A stretch of DNA of 64,000 nucleotides from Justusliebigvirus alia: sequence record OZ035799.1. The stretch is one strand, 5' to 3'. Positions 5,958 through 9,768 of this stretch are shown here, piece after piece (the first letter of the stretch is position 1; every line of letters begins with the position of its first letter). Below the pieces are notes generated by a model. That model was given only the letters and a program-made list of their open reading frames with translations. It did no database searches and was not told where the DNA came from. Position numbers and translations under genes: made by a program.

Positions 5958-6194
5958 ATGAAAGAAGTCATGATCCTCAAAAAATCACCTATTTTACGTG
6001 GTGGCTTTATCGCTTACTCTGATGATCTGTTAATTGCAACGGTTGCAAAAATACTAAAATCAGAAGAGGATAGTAAAAACGGCGTTTATCGTATCTGTTT
6101 CACCCGTGGGAAATTGCAAGGCAAGATCGCCTATGCTTTTGATTTACAAGATGTAAATGATAAAATCTGCGCTGTTATTGATTATGCAAAATAA
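5958..6194 (+). CDS. hypothetical protein (78 aa)
   Basis: ORF with RBS ACAGGAAAAAG; promoter-like TTGACC ... TAATAT upstream. Confidence 0.6.
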   Translation: MKEVMILKKSPILRGGFIAYSDDLLIATVAKILKSEEDSKNGVYRICFTRGKLQGKIAYAFDLQDVNDKICAVIDYAK

Positions 6195-6206
6195 TTAACT
6201 TTCTTA

Positions 6207-6240
6207 TTGACACCGGATCACGCTTACATTATTATTTATC
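6207..6240 (+). promoter_or_regulatory. sigma70-like promoter (TTGACA ... ATTATT)
   Basis: hexamers upstream of CDS 6282. Confidence 0.5.
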
Positions 6241-6281
6241 ACGTAGGGCAAATCATTTTAAACGGTAAACGAGGAAACACC

Positions 6282-6665
6282 ATGAGCAATATCATCAACC
6301 TGGCAGCGACTGTAAACGGTAAAGACTTTAACGGCGCTGTAGACCGTGATCCTATGTGGTGCTTATCAGTGTTTAAAGGCGACCTGGTTGAAGTTAGAAC
6401 AACCGAAGGGTATAGCGATGATTATAAATGCGAGATCCATTTACATAACTGGTACACGGGTAAAACTTATGCGCTGAATCACGCGTTTATCGGGAAAATT
6501 GAATATCGCGAAATGATCGACGAAGAAACGGGGCAAGATTTTAGCGATTATGTTTATATTCGTTCCGAAACATTAGCCGAACGGTTGATCGAGAAAATGA
6601 AAGCAAAAAATAAAATTAATTTATCTCATTGGATTGATATAACAAACGATCCAGCTTATCAGTAA
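6282..6665 (+). CDS. hypothetical protein (127 aa)
   Basis: internal ATG of ORF 6207..6665 behind RBS ACGAGGAAAC. Confidence 0.6.
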   Translation: MSNIINLAATVNGKDFNGAVDRDPMWCLSVFKGDLVEVRTTEGYSDDYKCEIHLHNWYTGKTYALNHAFIGKIEYREMIDEETGQDFSDYVYIRSETLAERLIEKMKAKNKINLSHWIDITNDPAYQ

Positions 6666-6681
6666 ATAACATTCCATACAA

Positions 6682-6707
6682 GGGCGCAATAAGCGCCCTT
6701 TCTTTTT
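6682..6707 (+). terminator. rho-independent terminator (GGGCGC-AATAA-GCGCCC + T-run)
   Basis: same hairpin as terminator at 1301. Confidence 0.75.
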
Positions 6708-6913
6708 ACCTCAATAAAGATGATAGCTTTTACCTATCAAAAACGTTCACCGAAAAAAGTGAATAGATCGCGGTATCGAGCTAATCAAGGAGCAGATGAA
6801 CAACCATACCATGAAGATCATAAGGCGCTTACAACGTGTTTTAGACCGCTTATTTTTAATTTCTTCATGCAACTATCTGGCAAAAACAGCCTTTTTCTTG
6901 TCTTTCCTCTTAA

Positions 6914-6987
6914 ATGATAATCATTCTTATTTATAGCTGATTATTTATGCAATAAACTGCATAATGCAATAATGATAATCATTCTTA
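6914..6987. repeat. two copies of 17-bp direct repeat AATGATAATCATTCTTA, each a Fur-box-like palindrome
   Basis: exact repeat at 6914-6930 and 6971-6987; core matches E. coli Fur consensus GATAATGATAATCATTATC. Confidence 0.55.
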
Positions 6988-7346
6988 ACTTATGACCATC
7001 TAACCTATAAAATAATAAGTTATCTAACTAAATTAAAACTAATTATCTTACTTTTATTTATAACTTACTGTTACTATCTCATTGATAACCTTATATTAAA
7101 CAACAATAACTAATATAAATCATTACTAAGCTAAATATAATCTATCTAACCTTTAAAACTATAACTATAATCTATTGAATTATTGCACAAAGTAACTATT
7201 AAATCGTTAGTAACATTACTAAATAATTAATATCCTATTTATTTATGATCTAATCTTTACCTTACTATCTATTACCTAAATAATCATTTTATACCGTAAT
7301 CATTTCATACAATAATTATAACAAGAAATATAATTAGCAAGCGTAT

Positions 7347-7523
7347 CATTAGCAGCCTATGCCGGACACATAGGCGGCTAATAATAACGCAACTACACAC
7401 CCCACATAATAACCATCACCGATAGTTATTATTTGTGCTTATGTAGCTTGCAACAACTGCAAGCGCAACAATATACATGGTATATTGTATTCCCTTACAT
7501 TGTTGCGGTGCGTTATTATTAGC
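7347..7523. repeat. nested inverted repeats (outer 15-bp IR GCTAATAATAACGCA at 7377-7391 / 7509-7523; inner hairpins at 7347-7369 and 7448-7466)
   Basis: reverse-complement matches seen directly in sequence. Confidence 0.5.
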
Positions 7524-7550
7524 TAATGTTTAGAACATTGGCTATAATAT

Positions 7551-7620
7551 AAGCTATCCAATAATATAAGCTATCCAATAATAATAAGCTATACAATAAT
7601 AATAAGCTATACAATAATAA
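7551..7620. repeat. four tandem copies of a 17-18 bp unit AAGCTAT(C/A)CAATAATAAT (iteron-like)
   Basis: head-to-tail repeats seen directly. Confidence 0.7.
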
Positions 7621-7916
7621 ACATCGTGAATAATGATGCTGATGATCATAATGCGCCACCTTCCAGGGCGGCGCTATGTGAACACAAAGAAATCTTTCTT
7701 GTCAAGAAAAATATTAACACTATTGCGCAAAATTATTTATATATGAATAGATGGTTTTTCATACTATTGCCCCTATAACATACCTCATTTGTTGCAATGT
7801 ACCTTCCTATTTGTTGAGTATAGTTATAGCCTATTTGTTGAGCCTACTTTCTTAAAAGCGCAATAAAGTAGAAATATCTTGATTTTTAGTCGGTTTTATA
7901 GTACAGAAAGTATGCA

Positions 7917-7932
7917 AATGATAATCATTATC
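7917..7932. promoter_or_regulatory. Fur-box-like palindrome AATGATAATCATTATC
   Basis: 17 of 19 positions match the 19-bp Fur consensus. Confidence 0.5.
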
Positions 7933-8097
7933 AGCTATCTTCCACGGGTAGCACTATTTCACGCCAGATCATTTCATTTGGCAAGGTGTATATAGATGTT
8001 TAGACTTGCCAAGCCATTGATTTACTTAGAATTTATCTGTTTTGTTGTGAGTAGTACCTTTCTTGCTCAGAAAATAATCAAAAGTCTTATAAGTCAT

Positions 8098-8133
8098 TGA
8101 ATGATAATGCAAATGATAATTATTCTCATTGAT
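8098..8133. promoter_or_regulatory. Fur-box-like elements (GAATGATAATG / AAATGATAATTATTCTCATT)
   Basis: partial matches to Fur consensus. Confidence 0.35.
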
Positions 8134-8502
8134 ATTTGAGGGGGACGGTCGGCAGAAATCGGGGGGCGCTGAAAATCGCGTTAAGCACCTCTCGCAAGCG
8201 AGCAGTATTTTGCGGCAAGTTATTGATATTATTGACTTTACGCTTATGAAAAGGGGGTGTGTCGAAATAAATCGGGTATACCGGAAAATTTTTGTGGCAT
8301 AGATATTTATTTGTCTATATTATGTACAAAGGGGTGTGTTAAAAATATTAGGTATATATAGAATAATTGATAGGGAAATCCTATGCTAATCCCTCCATTA
8401 ATGATGTTCCTATGTTACTGTTCTTGTAATAGATGAAAAGACGCTGTATGATGTGTGGCATGAAACGTAAACTTACAACGTAAACTTATAAAGGAGTCTG
8501 AT

Positions 8503-8880
8503 ATGTGTGTTCCTCTTAGCAGTCCACTGCTGTTAGAATTTTACAAAGCATGGATGCAAGATCATTCCTCAATGCATCGTGAGAATGTTGGTTTGTGTAT
8601 TTGCCTTATGGATTATCTGGCAACCACTATGTCAAAGAAAAAACCTACGCGAGAAGATATAGAACATTTCAAAATGGTTCGCAGTAAAACGCTGGAAGAG
8701 ATGAAATTGCAATTCACGTGTGCTGGGCTATCCTCCTTCCTGCCCTTTAATGATGATCTTCTGTGTTATGAAGATGAAGGTAAGAAACATTCTTGCCATA
8801 CTAACCCAGAGAGATTGCAGTGGGTGAAAGATCGTATTGCCGATTCATGTTTGGTGTTAGGGGGTGATAATGAAAAGTAA
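8503..8880 (+). CDS. hypothetical protein, paralog family member A (125 aa)
   Basis: RBS AAAGGAG; shares motifs GLCxCLxD, FTCAGL, LPFN, RLQWVKDRI with 8870, 11162 and 12154 ORFs. Confidence 0.7.
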   Translation: MCVPLSSPLLLEFYKAWMQDHSSMHRENVGLCICLMDYLATTMSKKKPTREDIEHFKMVRSKTLEEMKLQFTCAGLSSFLPFNDDLLCYEDEGKKHSCHTNPERLQWVKDRIADSCLVLGGDNEK

Positions 8881-9238
8881 TATTCCGTTGAGTAGTGCAG
8901 CTTTAATACGATTCTATAAAGCATGGATTGCCAACCATCCGGCAATGAATCGCACAACGAGTGGCTTGTGTGGTTGTCTGGTAGATTATGTAGATGATTT
9001 TGTTGGTGAGGTAACTAGAGAAGAAGATAAAAGATGGCGTGATCGTTTGTTGGATAGTTTGAAATACGAAATGAGGAAACAATTTACATGTGCAGGACTG
9101 GACTACAATCTTCCGTTCAATGCAGATTGCATGGATTACCTTTCAGAATGTATAGACTTGGCGTGTCATACCAACACGTTACGTCTTCAATGGGTGAAAG
9201 ACAGAATCGAAGATGCAAATAATGCTTGCATTGAATAG
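8870..9238 (+). CDS. hypothetical protein, paralog family member B (122 aa)
   Basis: RBS AGGGGGTGA; tandem to member A with same motifs. Confidence 0.7.
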   Translation: MKSNIPLSSAALIRFYKAWIANHPAMNRTTSGLCGCLVDYVDDFVGEVTREEDKRWRDRLLDSLKYEMRKQFTCAGLDYNLPFNADCMDYLSECIDLACHTNTLRLQWVKDRIEDANNACIE

Positions 9239-9309
9239 AAATGCCTGTACACTGTGTTCCATAAGATATGCAATATCGCGCATAACAAAACTACTAATGA
9301 GAGGTGTAA

Positions 9310-9768
9310 ATGAAAACTGTATCTTTGTATCTTGCTAACACGGAGCGTGTACATAATCTTGTAAAAGAATGCGGTGTGAGTGTTCAATTTAACATAGGAA
9401 CGCCTTCCGTGGTGACAGGCAGCGAGATGTGTGTTATTGATTTCATCAATGAATATTTTCGTGGGAAGCCTATTGCTCGTCACTTCATTCGAGAAATGCG
9501 AGATGTACAACAGGATTATGAATTCTACCCAGAAATTTGTGAACGCTATGAAACTATTCTTAGTTCTGTAGAAGATCCAGATACCAGTGAAACAGGTGTT
9601 TCCCACTTACTGTGGATGTTGAATGAAATCCAGGATGGGTGTAATGATATGTCTGAAACCAAACGCCATCGTTGGCTAGGCTATATTCAGGGTGTTATGG
9701 TTATGAAAAACCTTATTACAGTTGATGATGAACGTAACGCTACGCGCCCCGTCTTTAATGGAGCATAA
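9310..9768 (+). CDS. hypothetical protein (152 aa)
   Basis: ORF with RBS GAGAGGTG. Confidence 0.6.
   Translation: MKTVSLYLANTERVHNLVKECGVSVQFNIGTPSVVTGSEMCVIDFINEYFRGKPIARHFIREMRDVQQDYEFYPEICERYETILSSVEDPDTSETGVSHLLWMLNEIQDGCNDMSETKRHRWLGYIQGVMVMKNLITVDDERNATRPVFNGA

Follow-up and report, generated by a model that had tools for sequence, protein, structure and literature searches.

The longest gene-free stretch (positions 6918-8502) in a 64,000-nucleotide (nt) piece of Justusliebigvirus alia DNA, sequence record OZ035799.1, is probably the genome terminus, that is, the concatemer junction, of a phi92-like myovirus whose packaging is of the T7 type, its DNA being of unit length and bearing short direct terminal repeats (DTRs). 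The whole 64-kb stretch, read on one strand from 5' to 3', is hereafter called the window, and by its sequence it belongs to a Justusliebigvirus, a phi92-like myovirus, since the segment 6700-8700 matches 'Justusliebigvirus alia' OZ035770.1 with 100% identity and about 40 phi92-like coliphages with 92-96%. A sequence-only reading of this DNA had left three options for the stretch: an origin, a packaging site or a non-coding RNA (ncRNA) locus. Packaging is the option that gained support, as the ends mapped in phi92 fall at 7841 and 8183 and their boundaries are conserved in three lineages, while the origin retains only the generic support of an A/T-rich tract and repeats, and the ncRNA is left without an Rfam match, a promoter, a terminator or a wobble signal, keeping some weight because the hairpin cluster described below shows strong covariation. 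The DTR is already annotated in phi92; the core of the answer is thus known biology for a close relative.

The evidence for the terminus comes foremost from phi92, whose record (GenBank FR775895.2) carries a 343-bp DTR annotated at both ends (PHI92_DTR-L and DTR-R). This repeat maps to window 7841-8183 without a gap and with 335 of 343 positions identical (98%), and for this reason we take the region to be the genome terminus; only one copy is seen here because the assembly was permuted and collapsed. The DTR also occupies the same site in both phages: the left-flanking gene in annotated relatives is the homologue of Phi92_gp248, the final gene of the phi92 record, and the right-flanking genes, the first of which starts at 8503, match the first genes of phi92 and phAPEC8, from which it follows that the phi92 record was opened inside the gap by its authors. 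The phi92 annotation, unlike the present account, contains the repeat only, without the hairpin cluster, the cut motif, the Fur-like boxes or the GT boxes described below. Exact end duplications could furthermore be rebuilt from the records of Schickermooser (Phapecoctavirus, 329 bp) and Klebsiella phage phi1_175008 (343 bp), each with boundaries homologous to the phi92 ones, which makes three lineages in which the same sequence stands at both ends of the virion DNA with conserved, fixed boundaries.

The boundaries themselves (marked ^) are defined by short conserved sequences in loci of the Justusliebigvirus, Phapecoctavirus and Klebsiella-phage lineages and of metagenome contigs. On the left, ...TGTTG^AGC with a T/C-rich run and TTAAA behind it is present in every one of the 15 loci in which this boundary was located; on the right, the sequence is ...GAAAAT(T)CGCGTTA^AGCA, of which CGCGTTA^AGCA is invariant in all 14 loci that yielded the boundary. 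In the six collapsed assemblies in which both were located, they are 329-344 bp apart, which is the predicted length of the DTR, and the two boundaries share the context GTTR^AGC. Judged by this homology, the terminase is predicted to cut at 7840^7841 and 8183^8184 (Table 1). Ahead of the left cut, the Phapecoctavirus and Klebsiella phages have a module built as GGGGCGAA - small GC hairpin - ATGTTG^AGCAC, in one to three tandem copies. Record ends agree with these positions, the end of the VEcB record being equivalent to window 7840, and the start and end of the BME3 record (PP239276.1) to 8182 and 7841, respectively. A 342-bp DTR has been determined for BME3 by PhageTerm from virion sequencing (PMC12210895), and DTRs have been stated for the Stephanstirmvirinae in general (PMC12695924). 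The annotated 'DTR-L' of BME3 (146957-147298; L030 1058-1399) maps to window 7914-8255, 73 nt off, and about 0.8 kb of the region is repeated within that record; because of this shift and redundancy the feature was set aside and only the record ends were used.

On the left side of the DTR, which would be the mature right end, lies a hairpin cluster of 186 nt, single-copy in the window, whose parts are given in Table 1. Relative to shuffled sequences, it folds with z-scores of -5.8 as plus-strand RNA, -7.0 as minus-strand RNA and -6.6 as DNA. Among 20 distinct sequences, 98.7% of the pair cells are standard and 14 of the 48 pairs show compensatory changes, values that none of 500 shuffles reached, with slid controls giving one to five such pairs; the base pairing of the cluster is therefore under selection. 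The 948 pair cells include 931 Watson-Crick pairs, 5 G.T and 11 A.C, the last being wobble pairs on the opposite strand, so that wobble is nearly absent and neither strand is favoured, which makes us favour, tentatively, a structure at the DNA level that requires pairing in both strands. The cluster is present in every Stephanstirmvirinae locus that was searched with a covariance model. Motifs of the form ATTAGC gather around it, at 7333, 7348, 7377 (minus strand), 7518 and 7522 (minus strand), so that 195 nt hold 5 of the window's 30 copies, and phAPEC8 and the Klebsiella phages have more ATTAGC-type sites after the cluster. The sequence-only reading had placed the 15-bp arms of the outer inverted repeat exactly, and they are 100% complementary; of the two hairpins that it placed between them, the one at 7448-7466 (actually 7446-7464) is indeed enclosed, and the one at 7347-7369 (actually 7355-7375) lies outside, to the left. 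Two of the analyses that it had proposed, RNA folding of 7340-7530 and comparison with related phages, respectively showed a fold far better than that of shuffles and the conservation of both the DTR boundaries and the cluster.

Table 1. Features of the gene-free stretch and its left flank (window coordinates; ^ marks a cut)
Feature	Position	Strand	Basis or remark
Intrinsic terminator, end of upstream gene block (Phi92_gp248 homologue)	6680..6700	+	terminator scan
Conserved non-coding block, terminal ATCGCGGTATCGAGCTAATCAA	6720..6790	.	conserved between window and phAPEC8
Two Fur-box-like palindromes, 6913-6929 and 6971-6987 (6968-6986 = 16/19)	6913..6987	.	pattern and consensus match
A/T-rich, G-poor tract	6940..7340	+	80% A+T, G 4.5%, GC skew about -0.4
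Conserved hairpin cluster, 186 nt	7344..7529	.	fold z-scores, covariation, covariance model
H0 hairpin	7355-7375	.	left of outer stem
Outer stem, 15 bp, AT-rich, 100% complementary	7377-7391 / 7509-7523	.	encloses H1, H2 and H3
H1, with C-rich unpaired loop ACACACCCC at 7395-7403	7393-7446	.	fold
H2, near-invariant palindrome GCTTGCAAnnAnTGCAAGC	7446-7464	.	fold
H3	7464-7507	.	fold
18-bp tandem repeat ATAATAATAAGCTATACA, 4.4 copies, 96% matches	7544..7620	+	repeat scans
GC-rich hairpin GCGCCACC..GGCGGCGC (7653-7674), then palindrome TGTGAACACA (7677-7686)	7653..7686	.	TGTG..CACA palindrome retained in phi92 and phAPEC8
Three ATTTGTTG repeats, starts 7787, 7808 and 7832, the last reaching the left cut	7786..7843	+	repeat scans, boundary comparison
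Predicted left cut site, ...CCTATTTGTTG^AGCC (...TGTTG^AGCC)	7840^7841	+	homology to ends of relatives
Direct terminal repeat, one collapsed copy, 343 bp	7841..8183	.	phi92 DTR mapping and end duplications of relatives
Fur-box-like palindrome 1, within DTR, 17/19 to GATAATGATAATCATTATC	7914..7932	.	consensus match
IHF core consensus match AATCAATGGCTTG in conserved block TGCCAAnCCATTGAT	8010..8022	-	motif scan; weak
Conserved block TAAGTCATTGAAT - Fur-like box 2 (8112-8128) - CATTGATATTTGAG	8089..8141	+	cross-lineage alignment; promoter-like look
Fur-like box 2, within DTR	8112-8128	.	17-mer match
Predicted right cut site CGCGTTA^AGCAC, element 8177..8188	8183^8184	+	homology; invariant across 14 loci
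Two GT boxes, 8250-8280 and 8328-8358, each with GGGGTGTGT	8250..8358	+	repeat scan, alignment

The same arrangement recurs in another subfamily, the Vequintavirinae. In rV5, a 2.6-kb 'non-coding' box was left unexplained in a paper that sought the replication origin by skew analysis only (Kropinski et al. 2013, PMC3606486). This box (NC_011041.1 104014-106617; L028 4015-6618) occupies the equivalent position with respect to homologous early genes, and the covariance model yields one hit in it, of 38 bits (E = 5e-7 over the 88 kb searched) and in the orientation predicted by synteny. The rV5 homologue of the cluster (L028 5736-5952, minus strand) folds as DNA with a z-score of -8.1, the 18 bp of its outer inverted repeat pairing perfectly, and it is followed by GT(A/G)AACAG repeats, at the position of the 18-bp array of the window, and, about 300 nt on, by the DTR, as judged from record break points, with Fur-like boxes; this is the order found in the window. 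Vequintavirus records break at points 459 bp apart within the rV5-type box, a spacing equal to the 459-bp terminal repeat of the Vequintavirus Gotham (PMC7471380), and for the related KPP-1, also of the Vequintavirinae, PhageTerm on virion sequencing gave packaging of the T7 type and a DTR of 514 bp (PMC9862379). On the other hand, the rV5 box differs from the window in that it is not alignable by BLAST, a 67-nt insert replaces H2, the DTR is 459 bp long, and the GTTR^AGC motif was not found in it.

Several points weigh against the terminus. The boundaries in the window, and with them the DTR at both ends of this phage, are transferred from relatives by the 98% identity, because its own assembly is collapsed and its record has one copy. 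The short cut motif, taken by itself, is no rarity in the window and carries weight only because it is conserved at both boundaries. In addition, the distance between cluster and DTR varies from 245 to 530 nt, counted from H2; the near absence of wobble pairs could equally reflect AT-rich stems that offer few wobble chances; and packaging signals would leave room for an origin or a transcript beside them.

The T7 and T3 junction reportedly has a pacB signal and a pause site, and an inverted repeat to the left of the terminal repeat gives rise there to a hairpin intermediate. These phages resemble the window lineage in their short exact DTRs and T7-type packaging, as detected by PhageTerm in the related KPP-1 (PMC9862379), in having cis-elements and an inverted repeat on the right-end side, and in their early genes running inward from the left end. 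They share no sequence similarity with it, however, and the cluster in the window is far larger, with five helices in 186 nt. The T7 class II pause motif, ATCTGTT, is matched at 8035-8041 and was rejected, since it is not conserved in the other lineages. To our knowledge, no single-subunit phage RNA polymerase occurs in phi92-like phages. The cos and pac regions of other phages also include sites for host factors, examples being cosB of lambda with the IHF site I1 and pac of P1 with IHF. Like these regions, the window has repeated short sites by the cut, putatively for the small terminase subunit, and a site for a host architectural protein nearby, although its IHF match at 8010-8022 is weak, the count of the motif being that expected by chance.

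By analogy with T7 and T3, the concatemers would carry one DTR per junction, and the sequence to the left of the DTR would act as double- or single-stranded DNA. The hairpin cluster, the ATTAGC/ATAAGC repeats and the cut-site-like modules, all on the right-end side, may form a platform that is recognised by the terminase, and the cluster is possibly also the device that allows the single DTR of the junction to be duplicated, as has been proposed for the inverted repeat of T7. The terminase would then cut or nick GTTR^AGC on both sides, and synthesis would duplicate the DTR. Should the analogy with T7 hold, the left end, with the DTR and the GT boxes, would be the first to enter the cell, and the region would control the first genes; the DTR and GT boxes carry putative sites for host factors (Fur-like and IHF-like) as well as promoter-like boxes that may serve the genes from 8503 onwards.

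A possible but unlikely alternative, which may coexist with a terminus, is a replication origin, in which the ATTAGC sites and the 18-bp array would bind a phage initiator, the cluster would extrude or be a single-strand initiation signal, and the tract at 6940-7340 would unwind. Iteron-type origins are known from lambda ori and theta plasmids, and the window resembles them in its direct repeats of 17-19 bp adjoining an A/T-rich tract of the composition expected of an unwinding element; in addition, ATTAGC motifs cluster at the hairpins, the hairpin element is conserved across two subfamilies, and single-strand initiation sites of the G4 type are multi-hairpin DNA signals. The tandem array was anticipated by the sequence-only reading as iteron-like repeats at 7551-7620, and proved to be of period 18 with 4.4 copies; it contains ATAAGC and stands where other lineages have spaced ATTAGC-type repeats. 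Its copy number, however, falls to about 2 in phi92, inny and Paula and to about 1.4 in another relative (L010), all of these phages being about 95% identical, and in other lineages the unit is replaced by unrelated repeats. None of the 17 TTWTNCACA matches (DnaA boxes) of the window lies in 6900-8500, there is no recognisable initiator gene adjacent, the changes in GC skew follow local composition, and the flanking genes are all on one strand. Moreover, in both subfamilies the cluster lies close to the DTR and always on the same side of it, a regularity that follows more directly from a role in packaging. An A/C-rich, G-poor tract like that at 6940-7340 is found at the corresponding position in phAPEC8, and the tract may serve as a spacer, for unwinding, or in the manner of a rut site.

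The GT boxes bear on a further alternative, that of a structured ncRNA. Both of the GT-rich boxes noticed in the sequence-only reading are real; the second starts at 8328 as it had said, and the first starts at 8250 and not at 8242. The second continues into a conserved GGTATATAT..TAATTGATAGG ahead of the first gene, and the boxes are probably the regulatory region of that gene. The 9-mer that they share, GGGGTGTGT, has exactly three copies in the 64 kb, where 0.12 would be expected, at 7395-7403 on the minus strand and at 8254-8262 and 8331-8339 on the plus strand, so that its copies flank the DTR on both sides in opposite orientation, and the H1 loop ACACACCCC is the exact complement of the 9-mer in both boxes. 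Loop and box change together between lineages, as ACACCCCA / TGGGGTGT, ACACCCCC / GGGGGTGT and CCACCCC / GGGGTGG. One could accordingly imagine 7344-7529 as a cloverleaf-like RNA of about 190 nt, whose C-rich loop, as plus-strand RNA, would pair with the first gene's leader at its GGGGUGUGU boxes. This we consider improbable, in spite of the strong covariation and fold z-scores of the cluster, the 9-nt complementarity found nowhere else in the window, and a TATAAT hexamer at 7329-7334 just upstream. The hexamer is not retained in phAPEC8; no Rfam 15 family matched 6000-9500 at E up to 1; neither a conserved -35/-10 pair nor an intrinsic terminator for the cluster was found on either strand; and the wobble cells (5 on the plus and 11 on the minus strand) favour no strand. 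Energies of the duplex between loop and GT box were better than those with shuffled targets in only three of nine genomes, and a DNA-binding protein with inverted sites on either side of the DTR explains the shared 9-mer equally well as strand pairing does. A Chi-like role for the G/T-rich 9-mer was rejected on its orientation, given the generally known polarity of RecBCD.

In virion DNA, the partners of the 9-mer lie at opposite ends, and they are neighbours only in circular or concatemeric replicative DNA. It is conceivable, though we think it doubtful, that the cluster and the GT boxes form one junction-spanning device, whose pairing or protein-mediated synapsis would sense the junction and couple it to DTR duplication, packaging or an early-gene switch, with Fur in the DTR adding iron control. 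If true, this would be a conserved cis-acting mechanism of the Stephanstirmvirinae and Vequintavirinae without a described counterpart.

The non-coding status of the stretch follows mainly from the fate of its small open reading frames (ORFs) in relatives. As had been noted from the sequence, about 1.6 kb (6918-8502, 1585 nt) is devoid of ORFs of at least 60 aa, the next longest such gap in the window being 437 nt, and the region is AT-rich (69% A+T overall); but for this composition the gap is not in itself improbable, as 44% of shuffles of the region likewise lack such an ORF. Of the small ORFs tested in 6937-8502, all except one are broken, by a stop or by a frameshift, in one or more relatives of about 92-96% identity here, the exception being a 31-aa minus-strand ORF (7305-7400) inside the hairpin cluster, which stays open in relatives only because the sequence of the cluster is conserved. 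It is accordingly very improbable that the region encodes several small proteins, as the 8-10 'hypothetical proteins' placed in the gap by automatic annotation of records such as VivaForever, Antha and J-01 would suggest, since the curated records of phi92, Paula, inny and phAPEC8 have no gene in the gap, and a 46-aa ORF at 6796-6936 with a good Shine-Dalgarno sequence sits at its left edge and is missing from phAPEC8. In that ORF, AAGGAG precedes the ATG by 6 nt, and four close relatives keep the frame open while differing at several amino acids; its 3' end falls within the first Fur-like box, and its status as a gene is uncertain.

Fur-like palindromes had also been reported in the sequence-only reading, and they are real and concentrated here: a 17-mer Fur-like pattern has four sites in the region and one elsewhere in the window, where 0.7 would be expected. 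The 19-bp E. coli Fur consensus GATAATGATAATCATTATC is matched at 17 of 19 positions at 7914-7932 and at 16 of 19 at 6968-6986, with 0.06 hits expected in the window, and these may be regarded as putative Fur boxes. Two of the four palindromes of Fur quality lie within the DTR; the one at 7914-7932 is retained at the same place in the DTRs of Phapecoctavirus and the Klebsiella phages, phAPEC8 has an equivalent box at the relative place of the pair at 6913-6987, and Fur-like equivalents are found in the DTR region of rV5 as well. We know of no precedent for sites of Fur-box quality in a packaging region. The IHF core motif has two matches in the region, which are weak evidence because the window-wide count equals the chance expectation.

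Cross-lineage alignment of the DTR reveals conserved blocks in the order TCTTGATTT; Fur-like box 1; TGCCAAnCCATTGAT; TAAGTCATTGAAT - Fur-like box 2 - TGATATTTG; and the right cut. A sigma-70 scan found 18 promoter-like sites against 16.9 expected, together with a single terminator (6680-6700). Candidates picked by eye, namely TCTTGATTT, TTGGCA-17-TAGACT at 7978-8006, TTGAAT ... TGATATTTG and the GT boxes, were rejected, and no promoter is claimed, because none keeps a -35/-10 spacing across lineages.

No description of the cut motif, of the covarying cluster common with rV5-like phages or of the Fur-quality boxes in the DTR was found in the literature searched, which did not include the original phi92 genome paper (Schwarzer et al. 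2012). Therapy cocktails make wide use of phi92-like and rV5-like phages, which are also present in the BASEL collection, and many GenBank records of these phages are opened at arbitrary points, with spurious small genes across the gap. The true ends (7841 and 8183) and the cut motif would allow genomes to be oriented and annotated correctly, and would aid the design of engineered or rebooted genomes. How ends with short DTRs are recognised, cut and duplicated has been worked out for T7 and T3 only; the cluster shared by two subfamilies and the Fur-quality operators in the DTR offer targets for asking how large short-DTR myoviruses do so.

The genes neighbouring the gap all encode small hypothetical proteins. 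The hairpin at 6680-6700 is annotated as a terminator in phage Paula and phAPEC8 as well, and the block at 6720-6790 that adjoins it is conserved between genera, its terminal ATCGCGGTATCGAGCTAATCAA being identical in phAPEC8; a 65-aa ORF overlapping this block has a stop codon in phi92. The TGTG..CACA palindrome, TGTGAACACA at 7677-7686 in the window, is retained in phi92 and phAPEC8. A tblastn search with the upstream protein for distant syntenic loci was uninformative, as gp30.8-like proteins are widespread in T4-like phages, and pattern scans of IMG/VR and of metagenomes returned 4 and 7 loci, respectively, all of them close relatives. A tRNA/tmRNA scan found none in the region, the tRNA genes being confined to 59.5-62.1 kb near the far end of the window, where 15 of them are clustered on the plus strand (59517-62140). 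Finally, the GenBank MG0656xx 'Campylobacter phage' records (A150, A145, C3, A147 and others), labelled as C. jejuni phages, are about 95% identical here to phi92-like and rV5-like coliphages, and judging by these sequences their host labels are probably wrong.

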